The notes: generated by a model not told the origin, from the letters alone. A stretch of DNA of 64,000 bases from Novilysobacter viscosus (GCF_046600715.1 NZ_JBJMAV010000001.1:149980-213979); one strand, 5' to 3'. Shown: positions 12,645 to 40,000, counted from the stretch's first letter. Numbers and translations: made by a program.

Positions 12645-12728
12645 GCGGAACTCCCCTTCTGGTGTCGGGTAGTGGAAGCGATGGCCGGAGCCACGAAGGC
12701 CAGCATACCCACCGGTCTGGCCACCATC

Positions 12729-12742
12729 CTGATCGTGGTCAA
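12729..12742. promoter_or_regulatory. FNR/NNR-like box cTGATcgtgGTCAA, about 92 bp upstream of nirK
   Basis: 9/10 match to TTGAT-N4-ATCAA-type palindrome, followed by an A7 tract. Confidence 0.45.
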
Positions 12743-12817
12743 AAAAACGCAAAAGCCAGTCGGCGGCGGTCCTGCCGGCATTTGGAACGGGGGTGATGGT
12801 CGGCCCCAGGCTCACGC

Positions 12818-19840: not shown

Positions 19841-20839
19841 TCAATGCCACGAGCGGTGGTAGGGGCCGAGGGTGGTCTGGTGGCCTTCGGCCTGGCTCGA
19901 CAGCGAGCGCTGCCACTGCGGATCCACGGTCCATGCATCCGGCGCGGCGGCGTGACGGTCCAGCGCGGCCCGCCATGTACGGGTTACCGCACCGACGTAG
20001 GCCACGCCCCGCTGCCTGCCTTCGATCTTCAGCGCCGCGACGCCGGCGCGGGCAAGCCGCGGCAGCAGTTCCATCGTATTGAGGCTGGTGGGCTCCTCCA
20101 GCGCATGGAAGGTCTCTCCGCCCACTTCGAACCGGCCCTTGCAGACGGTGGGATAACCGGCAGGTTCACTGGGTTCGAAGCGGTCGATCAGCACGTCATT
20201 GAGGTGCGCGGTGCGGCTGCCGTCGTCGAGCTCGTCCCAGCGGACGAACCTGGCCGGCGAGCACACCCCGTGCCGGTTGGGCGAGGCACCGGTGACGTAG
20301 CTGGACAACTGGCAGCGACCCTCGACCATGATGCACAGGCTGCCGAAGGCGAACACCTCGATGGCGACCGGCGAGCGCTGGCACAGGCGTTCGACCTGCT
20401 GGATGGACAACACGCGCGGCAGCACCGCGCGGGAAATGCCGAAGCGCTCGTAGGCGAACCGCAGCGCCGGCTCGGAGGTCGCCGAGCCTTGCACGGACAG
20501 GTGCCGCGGCAGGTCCGGATAGCGCCGTGCCGCGTAGGCCAGGATCGCGATCTCGGCGGCGATGATCGCGTCGCAGCCGAACGCGGCCGCGCGGTCGACC
20601 GCGGCCTGCCACATCGGCAGGCGCGCGCTGTCGGGATAGGTGTTGAGGGCCAGGTACACCTTGGCGCCCTTCGCATGCGCATAGCGGATGCCGGCCTGCA
20701 GCTCCTGGTCGGAGAAGTTCAGGCCGGGAAAGGCGCGGGCGTTGGTCTGGTCGCGGAAGCCGGCGTAGACCGCGTTGGCCCCGGCGTTTACGGCCGCCTG
20801 CAGTGCCGGCAGGTTGCCGGCAGGACATACCAGTTGCAT
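19841..20839 (-). CDS. ubiU: U32-family protein UbiU
   Basis: MQLVCPAGNLPALQAAVNAGANAVYAGF is a typical U32/YhbU N-terminus. Cys cluster (CIMVEGRCQLSSY, CSPARF). 332 aa. Confidence 0.75.
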   Translation of the reverse strand: MQLVCPAGNLPALQAAVNAGANAVYAGFRDQTNARAFPGLNFSDQELQAGIRYAHAKGAKVYLALNTYPDSARLPMWQAAVDRAAAFGCDAIIAAEIAILAYAARRYPDLPRHLSVQGSATSEPALRFAYERFGISRAVLPRVLSIQQVERLCQRSPVAIEVFAFGSLCIMVEGRCQLSSYVTGASPNRHGVCSPARFVRWDELDDGSRTAHLNDVLIDRFEPSEPAGYPTVCKGRFEVGGETFHALEEPTSLNTMELLPRLARAGVAALKIEGRQRGVAYVGAVTRTWRAALDRHAAAPDAWTVDPQWQRSLSSQAEGHQTTLGPYHRSWH

Positions 20840-20895
20840 GCGTGATCCCCGTCCAGTGGTGCAGGGATGGTGGCGATGAACGGCTGGCGGTGTCG

Positions 20896-20909
20896 TTGAC
20901 CTGGGTCAG
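20896..20909. promoter_or_regulatory. FNR-like box TTGACctggGTCAg upstream of ubiU
   Basis: 9/10 palindrome, about 64 bp upstream of the ubiU ATG. Same spacer sequence as the ccoN box. Confidence 0.5.
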
Positions 20910-21650
20910 GTGCCGAGGCCGTTGAGGCGTCTAGGATCGGCTGGCAGACCCCCAGGTCATCCGGAGCTACCCTTGAACGTTATCGCCCGATCTTCCCTCC
21001 TGCCGCTGCTGCTGTGTCCCGCCTTTGCGCTTGCCGCGCCGGCGCAGGACGCGCATGCGGATGCGCATCGCGAACACTCAACGCAGTCCCCGCAGTCCCC
21101 GCAGTCCCCGCAGTCCCCGCAGTCCCCGCAGTCCCCGCAGTCCGGTCATTCCGGTCATTCCGTTCATTCCGTTCATTCCGGGCATTCCGTTCATTCCGGG
21201 CATTCCGTTCATTCCGGGCATTCCGGGCATTCCGGGCATTCCGGGCATTCCGGGCGTGCAGCCGACCCTGCGCACGGGCAATCGACCGGCGGTGCAGGGA
21301 CCAGCGCCCCGCCCGACGGCGTGCGCTTCCAGGCAGACGCACCGCTGATGAAGGGCATGCGGCGCATGTCGGAACTGGTGCAAGGGCTTCAACACGGTCG
21401 ACAGGGCCATCTGGGGCCCGACCAGGTCAGGCAGCTCGCCACCGGCGTCAACCAGGCCGCCGCCGCGATGTTTGCCGAATGCCAGTTGCCTCCGGAGCCC
21501 GATGCGGCGCTGCATGGCTTGCTGGCCCGACTGATGGCCGGGGCTGGCGCGCTGGACGCCGACCCTGCCAACCTGGCGCCGCTTGATGACATGGATGCGG
21601 CGGTACGCGACTACACCCGGCTGTTCGACGACCCCGGGTTCCCGGACTGA
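20910..21650 (+). CDS. secreted His-rich tandem-repeat protein (SPQ x6, HSG/HSV x about 13) with a CpxP/Spy-like C-terminal domain
   Basis: Signal-like segment LNVIARSSLLPLLLCPAFALAAP. The true start may be TTG at about 20973 after a GGAG. Composition-biased repeats. C-terminal helical domain with an LxxDQxxQL-type motif. Confidence 0.55.
   Translation: MPRPLRRLGSAGRPPGHPELPLNVIARSSLLPLLLCPAFALAAPAQDAHADAHREHSTQSPQSPQSPQSPQSPQSPQSGHSGHSVHSVHSGHSVHSGHSVHSGHSGHSGHSGHSGRAADPAHGQSTGGAGTSAPPDGVRFQADAPLMKGMRRMSELVQGLQHGRQGHLGPDQVRQLATGVNQAAAAMFAECQLPPEPDAALHGLLARLMAGAGALDADPANLAPLDDMDAAVRDYTRLFDDPGFPD
21078..21260 (+). repeat. in-frame 9-nt tandem DNA repeats (CAGTCCCCG x6, then CATTCCGKK x about 14)
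   Basis: Direct visual repeats, period 9 nt. Confidence 0.9.
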
Positions 21651-23107
21651 ACTTCGGCCCAGAGCGCATCAACCCGGCGTTCGATGGCCGGTGCCAGCTG
21701 GATGGGCCGGCTCCACGTACGGCTGGTCTCGCCCGGCCACTTGTTGGTCGCGTCCAGGCCCAGTTTCGAGCCCAACCCGGGCCGTGGGCTGGCGAAATCC
21801 AGGTAGTCGATCGGCGTGTCGTTGACCAGCATCGAGTCGCGCGCCGGGTCGACCCGCGTCGACACCGCCCAGATCACCTGCGACCAGTCGCGCACGTCGA
21901 TGTCGTCGTCGGTGACGATCACGAACTTGGTGTAGGTGAACTGCCGCAGGTACGACCACACGCCCATCATGATGCGCCGCGCATGGCCGGCGTACTGCTT
22001 GCGGATCGACACCACCGCGATCCGGTAGGAGCAGGCTTCCGGCGGCAGGTAGAAGTCGACGATCTCCGGGAACACCTTGCGCAGGATCGGCACGAAGATG
22101 TCGTTGAGCGCCATCGCCAGCACCGATGGCTCGTCGTGGGGCGCCCGGCCCATGTAGCTGCCGTGGTAGATCGCGTCCTGCCGGAGGTGCATGCGCTCGA
22201 TGCCCAGCACCGGGAAGTGGTCGGCCGCGTTGTAATAGCCGGTGTGGTCGCCGAACGGGCCTTCCAGCGCGGTGTCGCCGGGTTGGATGACGCCTTCGAT
22301 GAGCATCTCGGCGCCGGCAGGGGCATCCAGGCCGGTGCGCTCGCTGTGCCAGAGCCGGGTGCGCTCACCCCGCAGCAGGCCCGCGAACTCGTACTCCGAC
22401 AGGGTGTCGGGCACCGGCGCCACTGCCGCGAGCATCGTGGCCGGATCGGCGCCGATGGCCACCAGCACCGGGAACGGCCGGTCGGGGTGGTCGGCGATCC
22501 AGTCGGCATGGTCCAGGGCACCACCGCGGTGCGGCAGCCAACGCATGATCACCCTGTCCGGGCCGATCACCTGCATCCGGTAGATGGCCACGTTCTGGCG
22601 CGGCTTGCGGGTGCCGCGGGTGATCACCAGGCCGAACGTGACCAGCCGCGCCGCGTCCCCGGGCCAACATTGCTGGATCGGAAGCCGCGAGAGGTCGATC
22701 TCGCTGCCGGCGAGCGTTTCGTGCCCGAACGCGGCTTCGCGTTCCCGCCTGGGGGCCACGTGTGCCAGTTGTGCCAGCTCCGGCCAGGTCGACAGGGCCT
22801 GCTTGAGGCTCGACGGCCAGCGCGGCTCCTTGATGGCCGCGAGCAGCTCGCCGAGCTCACGCAGGCTCGCCAACGGCCTCCCGGCCAGCGCCGCTTCGAT
22901 CCGGTCCCGATGGCCGAACAGGTTGCCCAGCAGCGAATGCCGCGCCCCGGTCGGGTTCTCCATGAGCAGTGCCGGCCCGCCGGCCTTGAGTGCGCGCAGG
23001 CACAGCGAAGTCGATTCAAGGTCCGGGTCCACCGGCTGCGGGACGCGGCGCAGCTGGCCCGTCGCCTCCAGGCGGGCAAGGAACGAACGCAGGTCGTGGT
23101 GGGCCAT
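21611..23107 (-). CDS. ubiD: 4-hydroxy-3-polyprenylbenzoate decarboxylase
   Basis: 498 aa, UbiD family (prFMN-dependent) motifs. Converges on the His-rich gene with a 40-nt overlap. Confidence 0.85.
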   Translation of the reverse strand: MAHHDLRSFLARLEATGQLRRVPQPVDPDLESTSLCLRALKAGGPALLMENPTGARHSLLGNLFGHRDRIEAALAGRPLASLRELGELLAAIKEPRWPSSLKQALSTWPELAQLAHVAPRREREAAFGHETLAGSEIDLSRLPIQQCWPGDAARLVTFGLVITRGTRKPRQNVAIYRMQVIGPDRVIMRWLPHRGGALDHADWIADHPDRPFPVLVAIGADPATMLAAVAPVPDTLSEYEFAGLLRGERTRLWHSERTGLDAPAGAEMLIEGVIQPGDTALEGPFGDHTGYYNAADHFPVLGIERMHLRQDAIYHGSYMGRAPHDEPSVLAMALNDIFVPILRKVFPEIVDFYLPPEACSYRIAVVSIRKQYAGHARRIMMGVWSYLRQFTYTKFVIVTDDDIDVRDWSQVIWAVSTRVDPARDSMLVNDTPIDYLDFASPRPGLGSKLGLDATNKWPGETSRTWSRPIQLAPAIERRVDALWAEVQSGNPGSSNSRV

Positions 23108-23438
23108 GGGCGGGGCGGGGCGTGGAGGGACACCGAGCCTCGCAGGTGGCGATCCGCCGTGCCCTGACGCCAGTCAAGCCGGGCGCGGGCCGGGTTGGCG
23201 GCAGCAGGCGCGCGGCCAACCGGGACGATCCGCGGACGCGGGAGCCGCACATACGTGTTCAATGGCAGTGCCGCGGCACGCTGCGCGGCGACAAGGCGTC
23301 TTGTCGAGCGACGCCCTGCCGAACCGAAGTGCACGGGCAAGGGACCGTCGCGACCCCGCCGCTCGTTGGGGTACCAGGCCGCGACTTGCGTCGCTCCTGT
23401 ATGAGCTGCGGCCGGTCCTGCCGGCCCAGCGCCGCCGG

Positions 23439-24536
23439 TCAGGTGGCGGTCGGCGCGGCGAGTCGCTTCTGCACGTCCTCGCGCATGCGGGCGAGGTCCG
23501 CCTCGGCCTGGCGGCGCTGTTCGATGCCTTCGCGGTGGATCTCGCGCACGTCCTCGACCGTCTGGATCAACTTGTCGTGGACATGCTGGAGCGTCTCCAT
23601 GTCGATCACGCCGCGCTGGTTGGCCTTGGCGGTGGCCACCGAACTCTCGTGCAGGAGGTCGGCATTGCGGCGCATGAGTTCGTTGGTGGCGTCGTCGATC
23701 GCGTTGGCCAGCTCGACCGCGTGCTTCTGCTCATTGAGCGAAAGCTGGATGGCGAAGCTGCGTTTCCATGCCGGGATGGTGATGTCGCGGACCGAGGTGA
23801 ACTTCTCGATCAGCTGCATCGCGTTGGCCTGGATCATCCGGACCATGGGCAACGACTGGTCGGCCGCGTGCTGCATCAGCAGCAGGTCCCCGACGCGCTT
23901 GTCGAGCAGGCGCAGCGCCATGTCAACCTGCTGGCGCCGGGTGCGCGAGGCGGGGTCCTCCGCGCCCTCCAGCCCGGCGCGTTCGTCGCCCAGCGCCTGC
24001 AGGCGCATCTTCCCCGCCGCGACATGCAGGCCGAGCTGGTGGCGTTCGGCCGCGACGATGTCGTGCATGCGGTCGAAATCGCGCACCCGCTTGGCCAGGT
24101 CGTCCTGCTGCCGCGTCAGGTCGCGCATCAGGTGTTCGATCTGCTCGTTGGTGGTGCTGAACTTCTGGACCAGCTCGCCCTTCGAGTCCCGCATCCTGTC
24201 CAGCAGCGGACCCACCACCGGCAGCTTGGAGCGGCCGCTGAACTTGTGCAGGTTGAGGTTGCGGGCGATGCGTACGACTTCGCCCAGCTTGTCGCCGGTC
24301 GCGTCGAGGTCGCGATTGCGGACCTGGTCGAGCAGGTCGCTGGAAAACTTCGTGGTCGCGGCCGCGACGTCGCGGCCGAAGCCCTGCACCTCGGTCGCGG
24401 GCAGCTCGGCCAGCGCGTGATGGATCGTGGACACCTGCTGCAGGTCGGCCGGAACCAGGCCAAGATTCTGCAGCGTCGCCTCATCCAGTCCCGGCGGCAG
24501 TTGCGTGGGTGCGAGGGGGGTGGTGGACTCGGTCAT
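23439..24536 (-). CDS. telA: TelA/KlaA-family toxic-anion-resistance protein
   Basis: Start MTESTTPLAP. Long coiled-coil TelA-like core (KFSSDLLDQVRNRDLDATGDKLGEVVRIARNL...). Its ATG overlaps the upstream stop (ATGA). Confidence 0.75.
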   Translation of the reverse strand: MTESTTPLAPTQLPPGLDEATLQNLGLVPADLQQVSTIHHALAELPATEVQGFGRDVAAATTKFSSDLLDQVRNRDLDATGDKLGEVVRIARNLNLHKFSGRSKLPVVGPLLDRMRDSKGELVQKFSTTNEQIEHLMRDLTRQQDDLAKRVRDFDRMHDIVAAERHQLGLHVAAGKMRLQALGDERAGLEGAEDPASRTRRQQVDMALRLLDKRVGDLLLMQHAADQSLPMVRMIQANAMQLIEKFTSVRDITIPAWKRSFAIQLSLNEQKHAVELANAIDDATNELMRRNADLLHESSVATAKANQRGVIDMETLQHVHDKLIQTVEDVREIHREGIEQRRQAEADLARMREDVQKRLAAPTAT

Positions 24537-25285
24537 GGCGATGGCTCCCTGTCGGCCGGGGTTGGATGTTGCGGAGTATGCGGTGTGGGCGCGGGCGCGG
24601 AGGCCTGGAGCGAGGCGATCAGCCGGCGCAGGGCGTGCTCGTCGTGTTCGGTCCCGCGAGGGGTGCCGGCGTTGGATCGCTTGTTGATCGCCGCCCCTGC
24701 CGCCTGCTGGTGCCACAGCGGCACGAGCAGGTCGCGTACCTGGTGGTAGCGCTCCAGTACCCGGCGGATGTGTGCGGCTTCCAGCTCCAGCTGTGCGCGG
24801 GTGGTGCGCCACGAGTCGCCGAGGGCCTGGAAGTAGTCAAGGCGACGATGGGCCGACGCGCCGGAAGCGGCGCAAGCCTCGCGGCTGCTGGTTACGAACG
24901 CGTCCATGGCGGCGATCTGCTGCTCCACCGGGACGGGTAGCGCCGCGAGGTCGGACAGATGCCGCTGGACGCGTTCTGCGTGTTCGCTGGCGTGTGCCAG
25001 GTGCACCCGCAGGCGCGCATCGGCTGCGTCCGGGTGCGCCTGGGCCACGAGGTCCCAGCCGAGCAGGCGGCCCAGGAGTCCCGCCCGGCGCCGGGTACGT
25101 TGCGCATCCGATGCGTCGATCACTTCGACGATCGCAGCCAGGTCGGCGAGCAGGCGGGCCGCCGGCGCGCGGGCGAGCAATCGGCTGATCGCCTCGAAGT
25201 CGAGACGCGATGCGATCTCGTGACCCCGGCGGTCGATCTCCCCGGGCGTGTCTGCAGCCGCGTTGCCGGCGCCGGGCGCGTTCAC
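24533..25285 (-). CDS. hypothetical 250-aa protein coupled between the giant ATPase and TelA (possibly XpaC-like)
   Basis: No recognisable motif. Helical, Ala/Arg-rich. Start and stop both overlap its neighbours. Confidence 0.55.
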   Translation of the reverse strand: MNAPGAGNAAADTPGEIDRRGHEIASRLDFEAISRLLARAPAARLLADLAAIVEVIDASDAQRTRRRAGLLGRLLGWDLVAQAHPDAADARLRVHLAHASEHAERVQRHLSDLAALPVPVEQQIAAMDAFVTSSREACAASGASAHRRLDYFQALGDSWRTTRAQLELEAAHIRRVLERYHQVRDLLVPLWHQQAAGAAINKRSNAGTPRGTEHDEHALRRLIASLQASAPAPTPHTPQHPTPADREPSP

Positions 25286-28200
25286 CGAGCCGCCGGTGCG
25301 TCCGCAAGGCCGGCATGCAGGCGCGCAAGGGCCTCATCGAGCCGGCGCTCCTCAGGTGTCGGAGTGTGCGGCGCGCGGCCGGTCGGAGGCCGGGCCGTCA
25401 TGCGGGCACGGATCGCGCTGGCCAGGTGGAGCATCGCGTTGCTCAGCTGGTCCTGGTGGCCCTGGCTTGAATGGATGGCGGCGACCAGAGGCTGGATTGC
25501 AGTCTTGACCAGCGCGTCGACGTCGTCCGTTCCGGGGCGCGGCGCGTCCACGCGGCGGTCAGCGACCACCCGCTCCAGCAGTGCCAGGGCGTCTTTCCAG
25601 GGCGGCGACTCGGACGCCGCCGGGGCATCGCCCGCCGGGCCGGCGACGGCACTACCCATCGCCTGCAGCCCACCGGCGATGTCGGCCAGCTGCGCCACCA
25701 CCCGGCCGCCGACGTCCGCGTCCTCGGCGCCCATCGCCTTGTTGCGCAGGAAGTCGTGCTTGATCTGCGCCCAGCGGGCCTGCTCGGTGGCGGTCAGCAC
25801 GCCGCGCAGCTCCTTGAGCTTGAGCAGGTTCTCCTCGGCACCGACGGTCAGAAGTTGCGCTTCGCCCTGGTAGTGGTCGCTGATCAGTTGCTGCAATTCA
25901 CCCTCGTTCATCACCGGCGAAATCTTCTCGACCAGCTTGTTCATGTTGCGATAGCTGCCCTGCAGCTTGAACGCCGGTTCGGTACGGTACTTGTCGGCCT
26001 GCGCGGCGGATGCGATGTACTGCTGGTTCACGCGGTACACGACATCGCGCACCTTCATGACCCGGACCAGGGTTTCGACGAACTCGTTGATCTCCGCCGC
26101 ACTGTAGGCATGGGACAGGTCGGTCGCCGAAACCTGCTCGCCCCGCGCCTTGTCGACGAGGCGATGGAGGTCGGCCAGGTCGCGCGTTGCAAGCGGCGCG
26201 AGCAGCGGACTGGAGGTCAGGCTGTTCTCGACGTAGCTCAGGGTGAAGGTGTCTTCCACCCCGCCCAGGACATCGCCCAGGTTGTAGATGTCGGCGCGGT
26301 TGGCCAGCATGTCGGGGATCTTGAACACTTCGCCCGACTCGGTGTACGGGTTTCCCGCCATGACCACGCAGAACTTCTTGCCGCGCATGTCGTAGGTGCG
26401 CGTCCGCCCCTTCCAGACGCCCTCGACGCGGCGCGTGCCATCGCATAGGGAGATGAACTTCTGCAGGAACTCGGGGTGCGTGTGCTGGATGTCGTCGACA
26501 TAGAGCATCACGTTGTTGCCCATCTCGAAGGCGAGGTTGAGCTTCTCCAGCTCCTGTCGCGACGTGGCGTCCGGCGCCTGCGCGGGGTCGACCGAACGGA
26601 CCTCGTGCCCCAGCGCGGGCCCGTTGATCTTCATGAAGACCAGGCCCAGCCGGCTTGCCACGTACTCCATGAGCGTCGTCTTGCCGTAGCCGGGGGGCGA
26701 AATCATCATCAGCAGGCCCATAAGGTCGCTGCGCTTGCCTTCCCCTGCGGTACCCATCTGCTTGGCGAGGTTGTCGCCGATGATCGGAAGGTAGACCTCG
26801 TTGATCAGCTTGTTGCGCACGAACGAGGACAGCGGACGCGCCTGGAATTCACCCAGCCGAAGCGCGGTGCGCTCGCGTGCGGCGACTTCGTTGCGCACCT
26901 GGTGGTAGCGCCGGAACCCGGGAACGAACCGTTCGCGGTGCACGCGCAGACGGGCGAGCAGGTCGTCGACGGCCAGCTCCATGCGCCCGTCTGAAATCCG
27001 CGGGTGATCGCCCAGCAAGCCCTCGACCGTGGTGGTGAGGGCCACCGGGTGGTCGCGGAACGAGAGCGCATCCCGCGCCAGGATCCATGCGGCGGACTCG
27101 GGGACGTACGGCGCCATCGCCGCCGCCGCCGGGGTGTTGCACAGTGCCTGGAGCCAGTGCAGGACGTGCTGCCAGCGGGCGTCGGGACGGTCCTCGAGCA
27201 GGTCCAAGGTGTGCTGGAAGGGCGCCTGCAAGCTCGCGCTGGCCAAGCGGGACTCCAGCATTTCGGCCAGTTCACGGCCCTGTCGCGAGAGCACCAGGCC
27301 CGGTTCGCCGCTGGTGAGGTGGTCGGACAGGAAGTCGGCGGCAGCCCTTGCGCAGGAGGCGTCGAATGGCAGCCCCCGCTCCTGCGCGAACCCGGCCAGT
27401 CGCGTGGCCATGTCGGCGCGCAAGGCGTCCAGGCTGTCGCGCGATCCGAACAGCCGGTGCATGGCCAACGCACCGGCGGCACGCGGCTCCCATTGGGCTA
27501 CGTCCGCATCGTCGCCGTGCGATGCCAGCAGCAGGGTCGCCAGTGCACGCGGCGCGGGGGCGTGGATTAGGTTGCCTGCGACGTCGCGCTGGGCCAGGAA
27601 GGCCCGGAGGATGAGTGCGGCGTCATGGTCGTGGATGCCCCGCTCGTAGCCATCGCGGTAGCGGGGCGCGGCGAACTCACGAACCGCCCGGGCGAGGGCG
27701 TCGGGGTCGCTCGCCAATTTCTGCAGCGTCTCATCGTCAAGCCCGTCGCTACCGGCCGAGGCCGCTGCGACCAGCTCGCCTGCGAGGTACTCCGCGCGGT
27801 ACAGCGCCGGTGATTCCGACTCCAGCCCCAGCTGCCAGTACTCACGCAGCTCCGCCAGCCTGGCGTCTTCGATGGGCTCCATGAAATCGGTGCCGGTCAG
27901 GTGCAGGGCCAGCCGGTCACCGCGCGGCAGGATAGTGAGGTCCAGCGGCTGGGTGTTCACGCTGAAGCGGTGGCGGCCCAGCCGGATGACCTGGCCGTCG
28001 CCCTCGAACAGATCCACGCGATCACGCAGTGCGCGCACGGCCTGGTCGCGCGCGCCCTTCAGCCGGGCTTCGACGTCATCGGCCTTCACCGAGTCCTTCA
28101 GTGAGCGCAGCCGCTCGGCGAGTTCGCGGACCTTGAGGATCAAGGGATCCCCGGCAAAGAAGGCGTTGAGTTCGTCGGGACTGGAGAACTTTTCGGTGCG

Positions 28201-30597
28201 CTTTCCCAGTCCGGAAAGGATGCGGTCGGCCGCGTCCAGCACCGACTGGGCCTTGCGGTGGCGGTCGTCGAGCAGCGCCTGCTTGTGCGCGTCGAAGGTC
28301 TCCAGCAGCTCTTCGCGCTTGGTCAGGATGTCGCCCAGGAACCGCTCGTGTTCGCCGAACTGGCTCTCAAGCTCTTCGAGCTGGACCATCAGCCGGGACA
28401 GCTGCTCGTCGGCTTTCTCCGGGTCGGTCGCCAATCCCAGGGCGCCGGTGATCGCCTGCCCGAACAGCGTGAACTGCGCGCCGAACTGGGCCACGGCCTC
28501 GGCCGAACCCAGCGCCCTGCGGCGTTGCTCTGCACGCGCGCGTGCCTGGTTGAGGCGGCTGTAGATCGCCGATACGGCCTCCACCACGCGGGTGCGCTGG
28601 GCCGGGTCGTCGACCTTCAGCGTGGCCATCAGTTCCGACAGCATGTCCAGGTCCGATGACATCGCCTGGAGCGCGGCGAGGCTTTCGGCCAGCTCCGTGG
28701 CGGTCTCCGCGCTCCGGGCCCGGCCGTCCAGCGCCACGACACCGTCCAGGTAGGGCGCAAGTGCGGTGTCCGAGGCAAGGAACACGCCCGTGGCGGCTGC
28801 AACCCGCTCATGCTGGACTTGGAGTTCGGCCCCCAGCGCGTCGATCGCCGGGACATCGATATACCTGTGTTCGCGGATCGTCAGCAGGTGGCCGCGCTGG
28901 CGCGTGATCTCGTTGAGCGCATCGACGAACTCCTGCACCTGAGTCCAGTTTTCCGGGAGCAGCCGGGCCACCAGGGCGGCGTGGTCGTCGCGCGCATCGG
29001 CCATTGCCTGCGCGGACTGCCGGCGGATGCCCTGGACCTTCTCGAACTCGTCGAGGACCGACTCGCCGGTCGCGGCGATCTCGCGAACCAGGCTGGCCAC
29101 GCCATCGCAGTGGGCGTCATCGATCCAGTGGTGGGCGTCGAACAGCTTGCGGGTGTCGCGGACCAGCAACTGGTAGCGCTGCAGCGACACCTCCTCGCTG
29201 CCAATCTCACGGGCGAGGCTCACCAGGTTGGAGATGCCGCGCACCAGCTCGGCATTGCCCAGTCGTCCCAGGTAGGTATTGCTCTCCGGCCGGCTTGCGG
29301 CGAACTCGTCGCTCACGAACGGCGTTTGCCAGGCCTGCATCGGATGGATGCGGGTCGGCCCATCGCCTTCGGCGTGGAAGATGACCATCCGGCCGTCGGC
29401 AAGGCGCGCGTAACCATGGCCGAACACCGGGTTGTGCAGTTGCCGCTGGATCATGTTGTAGACGAACAGGGCCGACCTGCCGGGGACCTGGTCATAGAAG
29501 ATGTAAAGCACGTCCTCGCCATTGGGCGAGCGGATCGCACGCTTGAACTGCATGCCGGACATGGCCGCGTCGAAGGCCTTGTGCTCGCCGTTCTGGAGGT
29601 AGTAGCCGCCGGGGAAGATGATCCCGTGGTCCTCGGGCAGCTGCACGCACGCCTGGATGATCGCGTCGTTGCGCTGCACGCGGCCGGTGAGTGTGTTGTA
29701 GATGAAACCGCGCCACTGGTCCTCGCGGTAGGGGAGGACCTTGAGCAGGACCAGCGAGCCGACCCGGGCGAAATCGAAGGTGGCGTCGTCCAGCGACTGG
29801 GTCTTGTCCTCGACCGGTTCGGAGTGGATGCCCTGGCCGCTCTCGGTGTTGTCCTCGACCTTGATGGTGAGGTCGCCCCCGGTCGTCTCCACGAACAGGG
29901 TGTCGAGCACGTTCAGGTGCGGATGCCGGCCGTTGACCATCAACTCGCGCGTCGCACGCGTCCATTCGAAGTCGAAGGCTGGGGGCATCGTCAGGTCGCG
30001 CTCGCCGCGCGCGTCGATGTAGGTCGCCTCGCCGCCGGGCGTCAACGACCACCGGAACACCCGCACGTCCGTGGTGCGCTCGCCGATCTGGAACGAGGCC
30101 AGCAACCTGCCGTCGCGAACGACCAGCTGCAGGAGGCGGGCGTTCTTGTAATAGGCGTAGAGCTCGGTGAAGTCCCGAGTGAACTGCGGGTCGCCCAGGA
30201 AGCTGCCGGCAAGTTCAACCGGCACCACGTCGAACCCGTCTTCAGTGGATACCAGCTGGTAGAGGCCGAACACGTCCTCGATCCGTGTGCTGGTCTTGAG
30301 GCCGATGAAGACGTTGTAGCCGAACAGGATCAGGTGGCCGACCTGGACGATGTCGCGGCCGATGCAGTTGTTGTCGGTGCGCACGCGGACGCGACCGATG
30401 ACCTCCATGGTGCTGCTGCCGAATTCTTCCACGCGCCGGGCATTCATCCGCTCGGCGGCGTCGCGCAGGCGCCGGCCCTGGTCGGACAGGCGCCGACGCA
30501 GCACCTCGTAGGCGCCTCCCTGCGCGACGGCCTGGTCGATCGGGTCGGACCCCGGCGCGGGGGAGGGATTGGATTCGGCGGGCGTGTTGGACGTCAT
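25282..30597 (-). CDS. giant (1771-aa) protein with a MoxR/AAA_5-type ATPase module near the C-terminus
   Basis: Walker A SPPGYGKTTL (about 26686-26703). Walker B VMLYVDDIQHTHPEFLQKF (about 26490-26508), which is MoxR-like DExxxAxPexq. Sensor VVMAGNP (about 26367). The rest is a long helical / coiled-coil region. Start chosen at MTSNTP; the upstream 39 codons were rejected. Confidence 0.8.
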   Translation of the reverse strand: MTSNTPAESNPSPAPGSDPIDQAVAQGGAYEVLRRRLSDQGRRLRDAAERMNARRVEEFGSSTMEVIGRVRVRTDNNCIGRDIVQVGHLILFGYNVFIGLKTSTRIEDVFGLYQLVSTEDGFDVVPVELAGSFLGDPQFTRDFTELYAYYKNARLLQLVVRDGRLLASFQIGERTTDVRVFRWSLTPGGEATYIDARGERDLTMPPAFDFEWTRATRELMVNGRHPHLNVLDTLFVETTGGDLTIKVEDNTESGQGIHSEPVEDKTQSLDDATFDFARVGSLVLLKVLPYREDQWRGFIYNTLTGRVQRNDAIIQACVQLPEDHGIIFPGGYYLQNGEHKAFDAAMSGMQFKRAIRSPNGEDVLYIFYDQVPGRSALFVYNMIQRQLHNPVFGHGYARLADGRMVIFHAEGDGPTRIHPMQAWQTPFVSDEFAASRPESNTYLGRLGNAELVRGISNLVSLAREIGSEEVSLQRYQLLVRDTRKLFDAHHWIDDAHCDGVASLVREIAATGESVLDEFEKVQGIRRQSAQAMADARDDHAALVARLLPENWTQVQEFVDALNEITRQRGHLLTIREHRYIDVPAIDALGAELQVQHERVAAATGVFLASDTALAPYLDGVVALDGRARSAETATELAESLAALQAMSSDLDMLSELMATLKVDDPAQRTRVVEAVSAIYSRLNQARARAEQRRRALGSAEAVAQFGAQFTLFGQAITGALGLATDPEKADEQLSRLMVQLEELESQFGEHERFLGDILTKREELLETFDAHKQALLDDRHRKAQSVLDAADRILSGLGKRTEKFSSPDELNAFFAGDPLILKVRELAERLRSLKDSVKADDVEARLKGARDQAVRALRDRVDLFEGDGQVIRLGRHRFSVNTQPLDLTILPRGDRLALHLTGTDFMEPIEDARLAELREYWQLGLESESPALYRAEYLAGELVAAASAGSDGLDDETLQKLASDPDALARAVREFAAPRYRDGYERGIHDHDAALILRAFLAQRDVAGNLIHAPAPRALATLLLASHGDDADVAQWEPRAAGALAMHRLFGSRDSLDALRADMATRLAGFAQERGLPFDASCARAAADFLSDHLTSGEPGLVLSRQGRELAEMLESRLASASLQAPFQHTLDLLEDRPDARWQHVLHWLQALCNTPAAAAMAPYVPESAAWILARDALSFRDHPVALTTTVEGLLGDHPRISDGRMELAVDDLLARLRVHRERFVPGFRRYHQVRNEVAARERTALRLGEFQARPLSSFVRNKLINEVYLPIIGDNLAKQMGTAGEGKRSDLMGLLMMISPPGYGKTTLMEYVASRLGLVFMKINGPALGHEVRSVDPAQAPDATSRQELEKLNLAFEMGNNVMLYVDDIQHTHPEFLQKFISLCDGTRRVEGVWKGRTRTYDMRGKKFCVVMAGNPYTESGEVFKIPDMLANRADIYNLGDVLGGVEDTFTLSYVENSLTSSPLLAPLATRDLADLHRLVDKARGEQVSATDLSHAYSAAEINEFVETLVRVMKVRDVVYRVNQQYIASAAQADKYRTEPAFKLQGSYRNMNKLVEKISPVMNEGELQQLISDHYQGEAQLLTVGAEENLLKLKELRGVLTATEQARWAQIKHDFLRNKAMGAEDADVGGRVVAQLADIAGGLQAMGSAVAGPAGDAPAASESPPWKDALALLERVVADRRVDAPRPGTDDVDALVKTAIQPLVAAIHSSQGHQDQLSNAMLHLASAIRARMTARPPTGRAPHTPTPEERRLDEALARLHAGLADAPAAR

Positions 30598-30667
30598 CGT
30601 GGAACCTCGCCCGCGCAGGCGGGCCATCCATGCTGCAATCGGGAGGGCAGGCGTCGGAGGCGGTCGC

Positions 30668-30925
30668 TCAGGCAACCTCGACCGGTACCGGCCCCAGTTT
30701 CCGGCGCAGCGCATCCAGGCGCACCTTCATTGCGGAATCGATCTCGTCGGGCTGGATGCGCGAGATGATGTTGTTGAGGACACGGCTCTCGTCGTCGTTG
30801 ATGGTGCCGTCGCGTTCGGCGATCGCCACGATCCGGTCGAGCTCGGCCGCCTCCAGGCGTCCGTCGTCGGCGAAGCAGGTGATGGAGTGGAAGGCCATTT
30901 CCAGGTGGTCGCGATTCACGGTCAT
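30668..30925 (-). CDS. small TerB-like (tellurite-resistance TerB N-domain-like) protein
   Basis: 85 aa, FADDGRLEAAELDRIVAIAERDGTINDDESRVLNNII resembles the TerB/DjlA N-terminal acidic helical repeat. AAGGA RBS. Confidence 0.45.
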   Translation of the reverse strand: MTVNRDHLEMAFHSITCFADDGRLEAAELDRIVAIAERDGTINDDESRVLNNIISRIQPDEIDSAMKVRLDALRRKLGPVPVEVA

Positions 30926-30992
30926 TTCGTGTGTCCTTGCGGGGTGGGCAATGCCGGCGGCAGGGCTGCCGCCAGCCATCAGAAGGCCGGGG

Positions 30993-33008
30993 TCAGGCAC
31001 CTGCTTCGGGGGTCGCCGCTGCGGCGCGTTCGCCGGTTCCCGGCTGCGGAAGCGTTGCAGTCGCAGGTGTGACGGCGTTGACGCCGAGATAGCGACTCAG
31101 CAGGTCCTGCACGATCGGACTCTTGCCTGCCAGGCCTTCGACGGCCTTGCCCAGCGAGAGCGACTTGGAGAACGCTTCGAACAGGCCGCCGTCGCCGCCG
31201 ACCAGGTCGATGTTGGCATTGCGAAGGGCGGCGGCGATGACTTCCGCGTTCTCCTTGGCGACATCCTTGCCCGCGGAGATCGATGCCAGAGCCTGCTGGA
31301 GGTGGATGTCCAGCGACATGCGGAACTCCTCGTGGCTGCGCGCATCGACCGACAACGAGTCGATCGCCTCGAACTTGCGCGTCAAGCCTTCCGCTTCGGC
31401 CATGAGCTTCTTGACCGTCACGTTTGCCTCCGCGCCGCCGATGGCCTCGACCGAGGCGGCATTGGCGTGGCCGAGCTTGGTGGTGCCCTCGGCCTCGGCG
31501 GCCATGCGCTCGGCGAGGACGCGGGCATCGTTGGTGCCCTCCACCAGCCGCGCGGCAGCCTTGGCTTCGATCACGCGCGCCTCGGCGATACCGTGCTTCT
31601 CGATGGCCTGGGCCTCGGCTTCGCGGACCTGGACTTCGGCCAGTCCCGGGGCGGCCTGCTCGGCCTTGACGCCGTCGGCCAGCACCCGCTTGGCTTCGGC
31701 CTCGCGGTTGGCAGCTTCCAGTTCCGCCTGTGCAAGCGTGGTGCGTTCCACCGCCCGATGCTTGGCAGCGGTCTCCGCGGCCTCGGCTTCCTTGACCTTG
31801 TGGACCAGGGCTTCCTGCGCGGCGGCCTCGGCGGCCAGCACGCGGGCCTGCTTTTCGCGGTCGGCCTCGGACACCACGCGCACTTCGTTGATCCGCTCTT
31901 CCTCGATCGCGACGGTCTTGTCGATCGCGATGCGCTCGCGGGTGATGTTGGCTACGTCCTTCTTGCCGACCTCGACGACCTTGTCGCGCTCGACGGCCTG
32001 CAACTGGACCTCACGATCGGTGGTGACCTTCTCCAGCTCGCGGGCCCGGACCACGCGCTCTTCCTCGATCGCAACCGCGCGCTGGCGGTTCTGGCCGGCG
32101 ACTTCCACTTCGCGATTCACGTTCTGCTCGCGGATCTGGATCTTCTCGTCCGACTCGAGCCGGGCCTGCTCGGCGATCAGCCGCTGCTCTTCCCGCACGC
32201 GCGCGGTTTCGGCCTCCTCGCGCGCACGGATGGTCTCGATCTCGCGCTGCTGGCGGGCTTCCGCCTCCGCCTGCTGCCTTTCCAGCGCCAGGGTCGCCTC
32301 GCGTGCCTCGACGTTCTTCTTGGTGATCGCCAGCTTTTCGTTCTGCTCCAGCTCGTTGGTGACGACGTTCTGCGTCGCCGTGATCTGGGTGATCTTCTTG
32401 ATGCCCTCCGAATCCATGATGTTGTTCGGATCGAGGTCGGACTTCCGGGTCTGCTCGAGGTAGTCGATGGCGACGTCCTCCAGCACGTAGCCATTGAGGT
32501 CGTTGCCGATCACCTTGATGATCTCGTCGCGGAATTCCTGGCGCTTCTCGAACAGCTCGGTGAACTCGAACTTCTTGCCGACGGTCTTCAACGCCTCGGA
32601 GAACTTGGCGTTGAACAGCTCGTCCACGGCCGCCTTGTCGGATGCGCGTTCGGCACCGACGGCCTTGGCTACGCGCAGCACGTCCTGCTGGGTCTCGTTC
32701 ACCCGCAGGTAGAAGGCCACGGAGATGTCCGCGCGCATGTTGTCGCGGCAGATCAGGCCCTCGCGCCCACGGCGGTCGACCTGCAGCGTGATCAGGCTGA
32801 TCTGCATCAGCTCGGCCTTGTACAGCACCGGGATGATCAGGCCGCCGGTGAAGCGGACCTTCGGCGTCGCGCTCAGGTCGTTGACGATCAGTGCGGTGCC
32901 TTGCGGGACCTTGATGTAGAACGCCTTGAACAGGCCGAAGATGCCGAGCAACACGACGAGTAGAACGCCTGCGCCGACGACGAACGGCAGGATCATGGAC
33001 ATGGTCAT
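30993..33008 (-). CDS. flotillin / SPFH-domain protein (YqiK-like)
   Basis: N-terminal TM, SPFH core (PQGTALIVN...KVRFTGGLIIPVLYKAELMQISL), a LDPNNIMDSEGIKKITQ block matching E. coli YqiK, then a long EA-rich coiled coil. 671 aa. Confidence 0.85.
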   Translation of the reverse strand: MTMSMILPFVVGAGVLLVVLLGIFGLFKAFYIKVPQGTALIVNDLSATPKVRFTGGLIIPVLYKAELMQISLITLQVDRRGREGLICRDNMRADISVAFYLRVNETQQDVLRVAKAVGAERASDKAAVDELFNAKFSEALKTVGKKFEFTELFEKRQEFRDEIIKVIGNDLNGYVLEDVAIDYLEQTRKSDLDPNNIMDSEGIKKITQITATQNVVTNELEQNEKLAITKKNVEAREATLALERQQAEAEARQQREIETIRAREEAETARVREEQRLIAEQARLESDEKIQIREQNVNREVEVAGQNRQRAVAIEEERVVRARELEKVTTDREVQLQAVERDKVVEVGKKDVANITRERIAIDKTVAIEEERINEVRVVSEADREKQARVLAAEAAAQEALVHKVKEAEAAETAAKHRAVERTTLAQAELEAANREAEAKRVLADGVKAEQAAPGLAEVQVREAEAQAIEKHGIAEARVIEAKAAARLVEGTNDARVLAERMAAEAEGTTKLGHANAASVEAIGGAEANVTVKKLMAEAEGLTRKFEAIDSLSVDARSHEEFRMSLDIHLQQALASISAGKDVAKENAEVIAAALRNANIDLVGGDGGLFEAFSKSLSLGKAVEGLAGKSPIVQDLLSRYLGVNAVTPATATLPQPGTGERAAAATPEAGA

Positions 33009-33035
33009 TGCTACCTCTCCTTGGGATTCGAGCTC

Positions 33036-33671
33036 TTACAGGGTCTGGAACTGCCGTTCCGGTATCACGCGATAGGCATGCTGCGCATCGAGGTATTCGA
33101 TAAGCACGACGCGGTCGCCGCGTTTGAAGCGACCGGTCTCTCCGTCCCGCACCTGCAGCACCAGGCCCGCGCCGCCGTCGTCGACGGTGGCCGTGCCGTA
33201 GTCGGTGGCGACCTCCGGCGAGTTGACCACCGCCACGCGTCCCAGCAGCGACGGGTCAAGCGGTGGGCGCAGCTTGAGCAGCAACCGGCTCAGGGGGCGC
33301 AGCAGGACGGAGGTGAGCACGATGCCCGGGACCAGCATGGCCAGCGCGACGGCCGCGCCGGCGAACAGCCGCAGGCCCTCGCCCAGGTGGGCGAGTACGA
33401 GCAGGTGCACGAAATAGGTACCGATCCAACCCACGAACGCCAGCACGGTGGCCACCAGCATCAACGGGACACCTGACAGGCCGAGCCTTGAAATCATGGC
33501 GGCCGCGCCACTGGAGTCCGGGCTGTCGCCGTCGCCACCCAGCAGGCCGTCCAGTGCATCGATCTCGACCAGTCCGGTCGCTGCCAGGGCCCAGTAGATC
33601 GTGCAGACTGCCAGCACGACGCTGTAGGCGAGGGTGGGGAATGACAGTGCGGTTGTCAGGAACTCACTCAC
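33036..33671 (-). CDS. NfeD-like (YqiJ/DUF1449) membrane protein with C-terminal OB-fold
   Basis: Four TMs plus GRVAVVNSPEVATDYGTATVDDGGAGLVLQVRDGETGRFKRGDRVVLIEY, an NfeD beta-barrel. Canonical partner of flotillin. Confidence 0.75.
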   Translation of the reverse strand: MSEFLTTALSFPTLAYSVVLAVCTIYWALAATGLVEIDALDGLLGGDGDSPDSSGAAAMISRLGLSGVPLMLVATVLAFVGWIGTYFVHLLVLAHLGEGLRLFAGAAVALAMLVPGIVLTSVLLRPLSRLLLKLRPPLDPSLLGRVAVVNSPEVATDYGTATVDDGGAGLVLQVRDGETGRFKRGDRVVLIEYLDAQHAYRVIPERQFQTL

Positions 33672-34437
33672 GTGGGCTCTCCTTGCGGATGGTGGCGCGG
33701 CGCCGTTTCCGGGCCGGAGTCGCTTCCTTGCCTGCCGCGCCGGTCTCAGCGGCCTGGGCGGCCAGCCGGGTCAGCACGTTCTCGACGGCGGGGGGCGTGG
33801 CGGTGATTCCTGCTGCCTGGAGCTTCTCGTCGAGCGGATCGTGCGGGACGTTGCCGCTCGATGGCCGGGCCCGGGTCGGGGGGGTCGACTGGCGGGAACG
33901 CAGCAATTCCGCCGAATCGATCGCCGTCGGGATTCCGGTGCCGGTACCCGACGCGCCCCCTGCGAACGCCTTCTCCGCGCTGGCGACGGCCTCGGAGGCA
34001 CGCAGCAGGTCAAGCTCGTGCTTGAGGCGCCTGAGGGCGTTGTGTCCGTGCCGCACCATGGCATCCAGCTCGGAGGCCCGGTCCGCGTTGTCCGTGAGCA
34101 ATGCCTGTTCCGCATCGCGCTCGGATTCCAGCTCGACGATCGACAGGGCGACTTCGCGGGCAAGGGCTGGCTGGCCGGCCCGCAGCGCAGCCACCGCCTG
34201 GGCCTCGCGCTGCACGATCTTCTCCAGGGTCGCTTCGTGCCGTTCCTGCGCGGTGTAGCGCTGCGCTTTCAGTACGTCGAGTTCGCGCCGGAGCGTCTTG
34301 AGCTCCTCGTCCACGCGGTGGATGCGATCGTCCAGGGCACGTCCTGCATTCCACTCGCGGACTCCGCCGCGCACCGTGTCGCCGATATCGGCGATCTGTG
34401 CACCGAGGCGGGCCAGAAGGGTGTCGCGGCGCTTCAC
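33664..34437 (-). CDS. PspA/IM30 (Vipp1/YjfJ-like) family protein
   Basis: PspA-type coiled coil (LARLGAQIADIGDTVRGG...LKTLRRELDVLKAQRYTAQERHEATLEKIVQREAQAVAALRAG). 257 aa. Confidence 0.8.
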   Translation of the reverse strand: MKRRDTLLARLGAQIADIGDTVRGGVREWNAGRALDDRIHRVDEELKTLRRELDVLKAQRYTAQERHEATLEKIVQREAQAVAALRAGQPALAREVALSIVELESERDAEQALLTDNADRASELDAMVRHGHNALRRLKHELDLLRASEAVASAEKAFAGGASGTGTGIPTAIDSAELLRSRQSTPPTRARPSSGNVPHDPLDEKLQAAGITATPPAVENVLTRLAAQAAETGAAGKEATPARKRRRATIRKESPRE

Positions 34438-35093
34438 GATGCGCTTGCCTCGTCATGCGGCCACACCTCATCACGCAGGAAGGCCCCGTATGCATCGACA
34501 CATGCGATGACATTGCCCGCAAGTGCTTCGATCTCGAACAGGATGTCGGCCAGGGGGGAATGCGTGCCGAGCGATCCGAACATGACATAGCTCGGCACGC
34601 CGGCGACCGGCTCGATGCCCATCGTGGTCAGCGGCCACAGCTTGTGCGTGCGCAGGACGCGGGCATTGAAGGCGGCCGGATCGGACACGTGGTCGAGCGG
34701 CCACATCAACACCTGGACGACGATCTGCAGGCCGCCGACGGCGACGAAGACCGGAAGGTCACCGTAGTCGCGCATCACCAGGCGCAGCGTCGGGTCGGCA
34801 CCCTCGGAGCGGTGCACTTCGATGCTCCCGGATCCAACGGGGGTGGATCCTTCGATGGCGCGCTGCAGTGCGGCCAGCGTCCACCCCGGTTCGCCCGGAG
34901 TCTCGCGCAGGCAGTCGATCCCCGGGGCTTCGCCGGACGCGGGCGCCTGGCGAAAGCGTTGTTCGACAGCGGCCAGATCCTCCGAGAACTCGGGGCGGAT
35001 CCACACGTCCTTCTTGACGAGGCCGGCGTTGCGCATCCGCGCGCGGAACTCGCGTACGTAATCGGCGGACGAGCGTGGCTTCCCTGCTTTCAT
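34434..35093 (-). CDS. YjfI-like DUF2170 protein with an about 90-aa N-terminal extension
   Basis: C-terminal 130 aa, LPVFVAVGGLQIVVQVLMWPLDHVSDPAAFNARVLRTHKLWPLTTMGIEPVAGVPSYVMFGSLGTHSPLADILFEIEALAGNV, fits the YjfI family. First gene of the operon. Confidence 0.65.
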   Translation of the reverse strand: MKAGKPRSSADYVREFRARMRNAGLVKKDVWIRPEFSEDLAAVEQRFRQAPASGEAPGIDCLRETPGEPGWTLAALQRAIEGSTPVGSGSIEVHRSEGADPTLRLVMRDYGDLPVFVAVGGLQIVVQVLMWPLDHVSDPAAFNARVLRTHKLWPLTTMGIEPVAGVPSYVMFGSLGTHSPLADILFEIEALAGNVIACVDAYGAFLRDEVWPHDEASAS

Positions 35094-35117
35094 GTAAGCA
35101 TCCTAGTTTCTTACATG
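35091..35117 (-). promoter_or_regulatory. perfect 8-bp inverted repeat CATGTAAG-N11-CTTACATG overlapping the start codon / SD of the first operon gene
   Basis: Seen directly in the sequence. The mRNA would fold as CAUGUAAG-aaacuAGGAugc-CUUACAUG, with the SD in the loop and the AUG in the 3' arm. Lies in an AT-rich leader. Confidence 0.6.
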
Positions 35118-35142
35118 TAACTTTACAACCCGGCCACCTAGC

Positions 35143-35176
35143 GTGCCGACGAACGGTTCGTTCGCCCAATCGGCAC
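35143..35176. promoter_or_regulatory. nested palindrome GTGCCGAcgaacgGttcgttcgcccaaTCGGCAC in the operon leader
   Basis: 7-bp outer arms enclosing ACGAAC-g-GTTCGT. No T-run follows, so an operator is more likely than a terminator. Confidence 0.4.
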
Positions 35177-35215
35177 ATGGGCTCAGCCCCGGTCGTCCCC
35201 CGGCAGGCGCTTCTT

Positions 35216-38292: not shown

Positions 38293-38299
38293 CGCGACG

Positions 38300-38701: not shown

Positions 38702-38732
38702 GGGAAGCTTCCTTGGAGTACGGGCCGAGCGG

Positions 38733-39965: not shown

Positions 39966-40000
39966 GTCGACAGGATGAAGGTTGGTGGCGTGCAGGTCAT

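Follow-up and report, generated by a model that had tools for sequence, protein, structure and literature searches.

A giant AAA+ ATPase of the DUF3686 family encoded beside flotillin in Novilysobacter viscosus, and its possible role in remodelling flotillin assemblies

We analysed a stretch of 64,000 nucleotides from Novilysobacter viscosus (GCF_046600715.1, NZ_JBJMAV010000001.1:149980-213979; G+C content ~69%), referred to below as the window. On its minus strand lies a giant gene for a protein of 1771 residues with a single AAA+ ATPase near its C terminus. The gene is an ordinary orthologue of a family, DUF3686, that is catalogued in Pfam, has been published briefly and is experimentally unstudied. 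We give about an even chance to the reading that the product acts as a cytoplasmic ATPase, probably hexameric, and remodels assemblies of flotillin when the envelope is under stress. This reading is based on the conserved ATPase, the rigid scaffold, the conserved propeller, the near-obligate linkage to genes for flotillin and a protein with three transmembrane segments, and the envelope-stress neighbours.

The gene itself is as follows.

25282..30597, minus strand: giant DUF3686-DUF7902-AAA+ gene, stop codon included, 1771 residues (open reading frame, translation, Pfam, gene call of the public assembly)

The longest minus-strand reading frame at this place (25282-30714) would give 1810 residues from its first ATG. 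The start was placed at Met40 of that frame, the ATG at 30597, because homologues begin there and the longer frame would overlap a separately called, conserved gene of 85 codons; the NCBI start is the same. The product of 1771 residues shares 100% identity with the NCBI entry 'DNA repair ATPase' [Lysobacter sp. A3-1-A15 / Novilysobacter viscosus]. The G+C content at the three codon positions (0.71/0.44/0.88) follows the pattern of real genes in the 64-kb window. The translation has no internal stops, and more than 6,244 database proteins match the giant protein at E <=1e-5, those among the matches listed being ~1670-1820 residues long. Since so many homologues of the same length exist, this is one gene, and a split into several genes or a pseudogene was ruled out by the uninterrupted frame together with those homologues. 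The initial annotation of the window, a model's reading of the DNA letters alone, had thus delimited an intact 5.3-kb gene correctly, and its worry that resequencing might reveal internal stops and several genes was not borne out. No transmembrane segment was found in the giant protein, which is soluble. The parts of the protein, from the N terminus onwards, are these.

30421..30543, minus strand: N-terminal helix before the propeller, residues 19-59 (AlphaFold model; DSSP H19-26 and H29-59)
29308..30417, minus strand: beta-propeller-like domain, residues ~61-430 (PF12458 core, ~28 strands in the model, Foldseek)
28003..29307, minus strand: helical-bundle rod, residues ~431-865 (contains DUF7902; single helices of up to 58 residues in the model)
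28516..28764, minus strand: DUF7902, residues 612-694 (Pfam PF25472)
27871..27990, minus strand: small beta domain, residues ~870-909, motif GRHRFSVN...LT (strands in both models; G874 invariant)
27058..27810, minus strand: middle helical domain, residues ~930-1180 (C-terminal model, pLDDT 94-98)
26263..26811, minus strand: AAA+ alpha/beta core, residues ~1263-1445 (P-loop, Walker B, sensor-1)
26674..26697, minus strand: Walker A PPGYGKTT, residues 1301-1308 (translation)
26455..26511, minus strand: Walker B VMLYVDDIQHTHPEFLQKF, residues 1363-1381 (translation)
26347..26367, minus strand: sensor-1 VVMAGNP, residues 1411-1417 (translation)
within 26290..26316, minus strand: candidate arginine finger R1434 (conservation)
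25723..26262, minus strand: lid and conserved C-terminal helical domain, residues ~1446-1625 (holds YRTEPAFKLQGSYRNMNK; R1538 and R1550 invariant)
25285..25722, minus strand: Ala-rich tail, residues ~1626-1771 (pLDDT 45-70, not conserved, length lineage-specific)

Conservation along the giant protein is by far the strongest in the ATPase half. In two alignments of 77 sequences each, reaching down to relatives with 26% identity, K1306, D1368/D1369, N1416, R1434, R1538, and R1550 were invariant or at least 90% conserved. With its nucleotide-binding and hydrolysis residues all conserved, the ATPase appears to be competent. The protein has the features of the AAA+ superfamily, i.e., Walker A, Walker B, sensor-1, a candidate arginine finger, and an alpha/beta core with a helical lid. 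PPGYGKTT is its sole P-loop, a second one being absent. The initial annotation had pointed to the same three motifs in a single ATPase module ~470 residues from the C terminus, and they were found at the residues listed above; loss of these motifs from orthologues, which would have spoken against an ATPase, was not seen, as conservation stays at 90% or more in relatives of as little as 26% identity. Across the family, Walker A stands 243-606 residues (mostly 320-606) before the C terminus, so the value of 470 is specific to the Novilysobacter lineage.

To which clade the ATPase belongs was judged from profiles and from the structure model together. At the P-loop region, the Pfam models AAA (E 1.4e-5) and AAA_5 (E 2.2e-5) both exceeded their gathering thresholds, and with E values of 2.2e-5 vs 1.4e-5 sequence profiles alone fail to separate AAA_5 from classical AAA. 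The closest structural and profile similarity of the ATPase was to the MoxR, dynein, and midasin modules; the values for further comparisons were ~13-12.6 for Hsp101/ClpA/ClpB, 12.0 for Cdc48 and 11.7 for McrB. In the model, a beta-hairpin (strands 541-546 and 549-554 in model numbering) separates Walker B/alpha3 from the sensor-1 strand, and the segment from beta2 to alpha2 has a conserved loop of 18 residues without a hairpin. A hairpin at the former place is typical for the pre-sensor-1-hairpin superclade. The marks of the classical AAA clade (two arginines in a second region of homology, an AAA_lid_3, and members of that clade as the most similar proteins) were not found. The Walker B motif reads VDDIQH, with DD in place of DE, and this DD is at least 90% conserved across the family. 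The predicted fold supports, by a small margin, an assignment to the MoxR/dynein/midasin type (AAA_5). The corresponding claim of the initial annotation is thus upheld in part: structural similarity favours it and the hairpin may do so, while the Walker B DD speaks against it and sequence profiles do not decide.

Against PDB sequences, both the single protein and the family profile gave matches to the P-loop region only, which there resembles classical AAA or RuvB, and NCBIfam gave nothing above its cut-offs, with sub-threshold P-loop matches to RuvB and Cdc48. The last results bear on the database name, by which the protein would be a DNA-repair ATPase. This name has in its favour an inherited Pfam/NCBI label and the P-loop-only resemblance to RuvB (17 bits), and nothing else. 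The RuvB models of NCBIfam scored 16-17 bits against cut-offs of 282-299, neither a DNA-binding nor a nuclease domain was found, no paper supporting the name was found, and every conserved neighbour is a membrane or envelope-stress protein. A role in DNA repair is therefore hardly tenable; RuvB scores, domain content, and envelope-stress neighbours effectively refute it as an annotation. The label has spread unsupported through thousands of annotations and merits replacement.

The structure of the giant protein was predicted with AlphaFold in two overlapping halves. For residues 1-1000 (model m7dbe04e338f9), the predicted local distance difference test score (pLDDT) was 86.4 and the predicted template modelling score (pTM) 0.61; for residues 850-1771 they were 89.7 and 0.80. 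Pfam matched DUF3686 (PF12458) with a score of 654.8 bits, the cut-off being 25 (E 6.8e-197), over positions 2-448 of the 448 in the profile, and DUF7902 (PF25472), inside the helical part, with 88.1 bits against a cut-off of 26 (E 4.6e-25). The DUF3686 match spans residues 44-490 in the numbering of the 1771-residue protein, and the propeller-like domain is its core. The pLDDT in this domain is mostly above 90. With the N-terminal domain as query, Foldseek returned beta-propellers alone, both 6- and 7-bladed, at a probability of ~1.0 and a template modelling score of just ~0.3; the matches were CyRPA, paraoxonase-1, the WD40 domain of Vps11, and prolyl oligopeptidase. The layout of propeller plus rod aligned weakly to nucleoporin, IFT-A, Vps11, and clathrin chains.

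The initial annotation had described a giant helical protein with no other recognisable catalytic motif in the 1300 residues before the ATPase. This description has to be revised, as the first of these residues hold a large and highly conserved beta-propeller-like domain that is already a Pfam family. Residues ~61-430 are beta-rich, with 27.6% Ala+Arg+Leu+Glu compared to 46-49% in the helical parts. What stood of the earlier description are the helical parts, residues ~431-865 and ~930-1180; the structure prediction that had been proposed as a check showed these as well as the propeller-like domain and the small beta domain.

Between the end of the propeller and Walker A (residues 423-1301, 26695..29329), 75 of 76 relatives have 825-913 residues despite weak sequence conservation, and the middle region is modelled with high confidence. 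With its constrained length and high confidence, this region forms a structured scaffold and no floppy linker. In the model, the small beta domain and the helical domain pack against the ATPase, and a three-stranded element followed by a long helix lies between the middle helical domain and the AAA+ core.

Within the middle helical domain, the motif RGIHDHDAA (residues 986-994, 27616..27642, minus strand) was the one place with strong conservation apart from the propeller and the ATPase. G987, H989, and D992 are invariant in the 77 sequences, Y984, D990, and A993 are at least 90% conserved, and the patch has no match to a known domain. It may be a metal-binding or interaction site.

The genes around the giant gene are listed in their order on the minus strand.

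34434..35093, minus strand: yjfI/DUF2170 (PF09938, E 8.9e-40; open reading frame of 219 residues, 200 residues from the NCBI start; NCBI 'YjfI family protein')
33664..34437, minus strand: PspA/IM30 of YjfJ type, 257 residues (PF04012, E 5e-19; NCBI name)
33036..33671, minus strand: membrane protein of 211 residues, three transmembrane segments plus soluble C-terminal domain (YqiJ/YuaF-like in its position and its architecture)
30993..33008, minus strand: flotillin (YqiK-type SPFH protein), 671 residues, one N-terminal transmembrane segment (BLASTP against YqiK; NCBI 'flotillin family protein')
30668..30925, minus strand: conserved hypothetical protein of 85 residues, after flotillin and before the giant gene (called in the public assembly)
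25282..30597, minus strand: giant gene
24533..25285, minus strand: helical hypothetical protein of 250 residues (start overlaps the stop of the giant gene; stop overlaps the telA start codon)
23439..24536, minus strand: telA (toxic anion resistance), 365 residues from the Met at 24536 (PF05816, E 9e-73)

Neighbouring genes overlap by 4-8 nucleotides or are separated by gaps of at most 70 nucleotides, and for this reason they look like one operon. A scan of the minus strand for promoter and terminator consensus sequences gave nothing useful, so that the limits of the operon follow from gene spacing alone; Rfam had no match in 20000..40000.

Flotillin is the nearest large gene upstream of the giant gene in the window, with only the 85-codon gene in between, and PspA stands two genes further upstream, beyond the YqiJ-like gene. 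The neighbourhood was then compared among 80 loci from Lysobacterales, Enterobacterales, Wohlfahrtiimonas, Arenicella, Cellvibrionaceae, Colwellia, Pseudoalteromonas, Zooshikella, and Myxococcota. Gene calling by longest open reading frame picks antisense shadow frames in loci of high G+C content, and it was relied on for downstream genes only. In 76 of the 80 loci, or 76 of the 77 in which upstream DNA was present, the giant gene had a flotillin gene on its own strand directly upstream; three of the four misses were contigs that end at that point, leaving a single true exception (L046). The flotillin gene was preceded by a YqiJ-like gene in 71 of 80 loci. The trio of YqiJ-like, flotillin, and giant genes is kept in relatives at 25-30% identity (L082-L086) and in Streptomyces. 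It is a near-invariant operon core across phyla. The association with flotillin made in the initial annotation therefore proved near-obligate when orthologous neighbourhoods were inspected; PspA, which had been named alongside it, does belong to the same operon and is an optional partner.

The optional partners were counted in 87 loci, in a neighbourhood of 10 kb.

PspA: 31/87 loci
YjfI: 26/87 loci
85-residue protein: about 17/87 loci
TelA: 13/87 loci, in or beside the cluster, three distant branches included
rhomboid protease: 9/87 loci, pQBR103 included

The fullest version of the cluster was seen on the Pseudomonas fluorescens SBW25 megaplasmid pQBR103 (L088, NC_009444.1 84437-97641), where the trio is joined to a complete yjfI-pspA-rhomboid-yjfKLMC-like block. 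The order there is yjfI, pspA, rhomboid, DUF2491, DUF350, DUF1190, a glutathionylspermidine-synthase-like gene, a hypothetical gene in the YqiJ position, SPFH, and the giant gene. The operons of E. coli yjfIJKLMC type and yqiJK type are thus united in one unit on this megaplasmid.

These counts bear on a reading in which flotillin would be a mere membrane platform and the substrate would be polymer-forming PspA or TelA, with the giant protein as a Vps4-like factor for disassembly or recycling. PspA and YjfI are encoded in the same operon here and in 31 of 87 loci, and genes for TelA or TelA-like proteins lie downstream in translational coupling here and turn up again in distant branches. It is also in keeping with such a role that Ravi et al. 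(PMC11237479) leave open how PspA homologues without an associated AAA ATPase regulate their assembly. We consider it unlikely all the same, since the 10-kb neighbourhood lacks PspA in about two-thirds of the loci and TelA in ~85%, while flotillin is present in ~99%. Moreover, the ATPase is of the MoxR/dynein type and not of the classical Vps4 type, and no MIT-like domain was found by Pfam.

The rhomboid genes were weighed in the same manner. They occur in just ~10% of the loci, and there is neither a constantly linked protease gene nor a protease domain fused to the giant protein. An aromatic pore-loop motif is absent from the sequence between beta2 and alpha2. These results make it quite unlikely that the system serves membrane-protein quality control, in which a flotillin cage would corral damaged proteins and an AAA+ ring would extract and unfold them for a protease, as a cytoplasmic analogue of HflK/C-FtsH or prohibitin-m-AAA. 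Such a scheme draws on the pairing of SPFH cages with AAA+ proteases in bacteria and mitochondria, as described in PMC12048511 and PMC13220708, and on the nine clusters, that of pQBR103 included, in which a rhomboid protease gene is present.

TelA in the operon, a TerD gene near the Streptomyces copy and the one copy on megaplasmid pQBR103 could also be taken as signs of an anti-phage or toxic-compound defence module related to Ter/TelA systems, the ATPase being its sensor or effector. When seven operon proteins were tested with PADLOC, there was no significant match and no hit to the giant protein; the sole hit was an insignificant one to JetA (E 0.005) for the 250-residue protein. Only 13 of 72,556 plasmid records carried the family, mostly chromids or mislabelled chromosomes, and with this a plasmid-borne mobile system was ruled out. 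In Lysobacterales, the identity of the giant protein follows taxonomy (82% to 65%), as for vertical inheritance, and the flanks of the cluster are housekeeping genes. A defence function is accordingly given a very low probability.

Recent cryo-electron microscopy has shown that SPFH proteins (flotillins, HflK/C, prohibitins, stomatins, and erlins) form closed membrane cages. To our knowledge, no ATP-driven factor acting on flotillin has been described. As the giant gene is almost never separated from the flotillin gene, the DUF3686 family is an obvious candidate for a factor that opens, loads, or dismantles such cages.

We therefore return to the remodelling of flotillin assemblies and set out how it might proceed. 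The giant protein would be a soluble cytoplasmic mechano-enzyme of the DUF3686 family. By analogy with other MoxR-class AAA+ proteins, it would form a ring, probably a hexamer of ~1.2 MDa, from which rigid, length-constrained arms would hold the propellers outward as binding modules. At the cytoplasmic face of the inner membrane, the propellers would dock on an oligomeric assembly of N-terminally anchored flotillin and its YqiJ-like partner. ATP hydrolysis would then remodel the SPFH assembly, by opening, disassembly, reloading, or extraction of subunits or clients. The setting would be a response of envelope stress and membrane maintenance that, in many lineages, also recruits PspA-YjfI, TelA, or a rhomboid protease. 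PMC7574537 cites Collins 2010 for a contribution of TelA to resistance against nisin and cell-wall-acting antibiotics. PMC11260169, PMC12048511, and PMC13220708 describe closed SPFH cages that elsewhere pair with AAA+ machines, and show open and closed forms of HflK/C to be under study. A mechanochemical role in membrane remodelling or repair, as the initial annotation had suggested, is reasonable and agrees with a comparative-genomic suggestion in PMC11237479.

Several points weigh against this mechanism. The oligomeric state is assumed from the family. The DD of Walker B, in place of DE, may be a sign that hydrolysis is slow and switch-like and that the protein is no processive motor. No VWA/MIDAS domain, which MoxR-class ATPases normally have in a partner, was found in the giant protein by Pfam or among the neighbours in the window and nine annotated loci. 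The flotillin coiled coil, 368-492 residues long in all but one of 74 loci, did not co-vary in length with the giant scaffold (Spearman rho 0.08), and on this value the idea that the arm length matches the length of the flotillin coiled coil was rejected; a simple fit of the arm to the height of the cage is likewise not supported. In the exceptional locus L046, the giant gene (7248-12794) is without an adjacent flotillin gene and has a histidine kinase and a Cys-rich secreted protein there instead. Finally, no experiment on any member of the DUF3686 family was found in the literature.

A bolder version was also considered, in which ATP-driven remodelling dedicated to SPFH/flotillin cages would have its first known agents in the DUF3686 proteins, with a ring of MoxR-type ATPases of ~1.2 MDa whose rigid, propeller-tipped arms grip the cytoplasmic flotillin-YqiJ assembly so as to open or recycle it, and in which the propeller-rod layout would be a bacterial, ATPase-fused analogue of membrane coats. 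We offer this tentatively and regard it as doubtful. For genetic work on the family, tractable hosts are Stenotrophomonas, Xanthomonas, Myxococcus, Proteus, and Streptomyces.

The other products of the operon were characterized as well. In BLASTP, the flotillin of the window was 28% identical to E. coli K-12 YqiK over 456 residues (E 7e-40). Pfam Band_7 missed this protein, and PDB searches with the single sequence and the family profile likewise gave no chain; Band_7 is on record for the orthologous flotillin genes of two distant relatives (L084 and L085). The giant-associated flotillins are a divergent SPFH subgroup, ~120 residues longer than YqiK, with most of the excess in additional Ala/Glu-rich coiled coil. 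When the 211-residue protein was compared with E. coli YqiJ by BLASTP, the similarity was not significant (E 20), and 'YqiJ-like' here denotes position and topology only.

The 85-residue protein begins with MTVNRDHLEMAFHSITCFADDGRLEAAELDRIVAIAERDGTINDDE and contains two 'DG..(D/E)..E' repeats, in which the eye may see a TerB- or EF-hand-like pattern, a likeness that could not be backed up; no Pfam or PDB match was found. Its homologues were present in ~17 related clusters at three positions: in the gap from flotillin to the giant gene, upstream of the yjfI gene, and beyond the giant gene on its downstream side. Recurrence at three different positions suggests that the gene is functionally linked to the cluster. 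The 250-codon gene has ATGA overlaps on both sides, with the stop of the giant gene and with the telA start. Its product showed weak local similarity to TelA (E 0.003), of which it may be a divergent paralogue; in 7 of 80 loci, a homologue comes after the giant gene.

The start of telA is most likely the Met at 24536, giving 365 residues, and not that of the recorded 298-residue call. In another public assembly of the same or a near-identical strain (L081), a palindromic, fold-back-like insertion of 74 bp (16211-16285) lies inside telA and breaks its frame. The site corresponds to ~24387 of the window, from which the insertion is absent. Over the surrounding ~2 kb (3' end of the giant gene, 250-codon gene, and telA) there were 0 mismatches between the two, and the giant gene is identical. 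The insertion is an artefact of assembly or else a genuine inverted duplication.

Directly upstream of the operon (35216..38490, minus strand) lie a gene for a pyridoxal-phosphate-dependent enzyme (PALP) and one for a long pyridoxal-dependent decarboxylase. Their conservation beside the cluster is limited to the closest relative (L001), and they are probably unrelated to the operon.

An exhaustive search with the N-terminal 761 residues gave 981 cluster representatives at 50% identity, the full-length ones being 1541-2036 residues long. The architecture of the family, the giant protein included, is constant: DUF3686, DUF7902, and a single C-terminal AAA+ module. Members were seen at least in Pseudomonadota, Myxococcota, Actinomycetota, Deinococcota, and Bacteroidota. 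Contigs of metagenome-assembled genomes assigned to Longimicrobium (Gemmatimonadota; L007, L009, L011, L019, L031, and L035) carry copies that are 70-75% identical to the Lysobacter protein and closer to it than the Stenotrophomonas ones. These are probably mis-binned Lysobacterales DNA or a very recent transfer.

Literature searches for DUF3686, PF12458, or 'DNA repair ATPase' with flotillin found nothing, nor did a combination of TelA, flotillin, PspA, and AAA+; a 2026 survey of Pseudomonas SPFH proteins makes no mention of the ATPase. In one paragraph, Ravi et al. 2024 (PMC11237479) described the operon class and noted that abbreviated versions are more widespread. The example in their supplement is Dokdonia donghaensis, with the architecture 'Betapropeller+Coiled-coil+AAA-ATPase', and a role resembling a chaperone's, for the assembly and the dynamics of a sub-membrane complex, was inferred.

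Compared with that report, the operon of the window has the same gene set (CesT/Tir(YjfI)-PspA, YqiJ/YuaF, Band-7/flotillin, and ATPase) and the same three-part ATPase, and the more widespread abbreviated flotillin + YqiJ (+ ATPase) operons agree with the loci counted here. The link to DUF3686/DUF7902, the AAA+ clade, a structure model, and statistics are absent from the paper and are given here. TelA has 0 occurrences in its main text, in which the 85-codon gene and the length-constrained scaffold found here are likewise unmentioned.

Among known ATPases, the MoxR proteins (CbbQ, NorQ, and RavA) have ~270-500 residues and a VWA/MIDAS partner. The giant protein, at 1771 residues, differs from them by the propeller and the scaffold of ~880 residues in front of the ATPase, by the lack of a VWA partner in the clusters examined, and by a Walker B with DD instead of DE. 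The dynein heavy chain and midasin (Rea1/Mdn1) are eukaryotic and concatenate six AAA modules, whereas the giant protein has one and would need to oligomerise.

The likeness to HflK/C-FtsH and prohibitin-m-AAA is that an SPFH scaffold is tied, genetically or physically, to an AAA+ machine at the membrane. FtsH and m-AAA, however, are membrane-anchored, cage-enclosed proteases of the classical clade, whereas the giant ATPase is soluble, lacks a protease domain, is assigned to another clade and, if modelled rightly, faces a cytoplasmic flotillin. With Vps4 and ESCRT-III it would share the concept of an AAA+ ATPase dedicated to the recycling of a membrane-remodelling polymer, and PspA, a relative of ESCRT-III, is encoded in the operon. 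Vps4 is a classical AAA protein with an MIT domain, whereas PspA here is merely an optional neighbour (31/87 loci). If the bolder version set out above is true, DUF3686 proteins would do for flotillin what Vps4 does for ESCRT-III.

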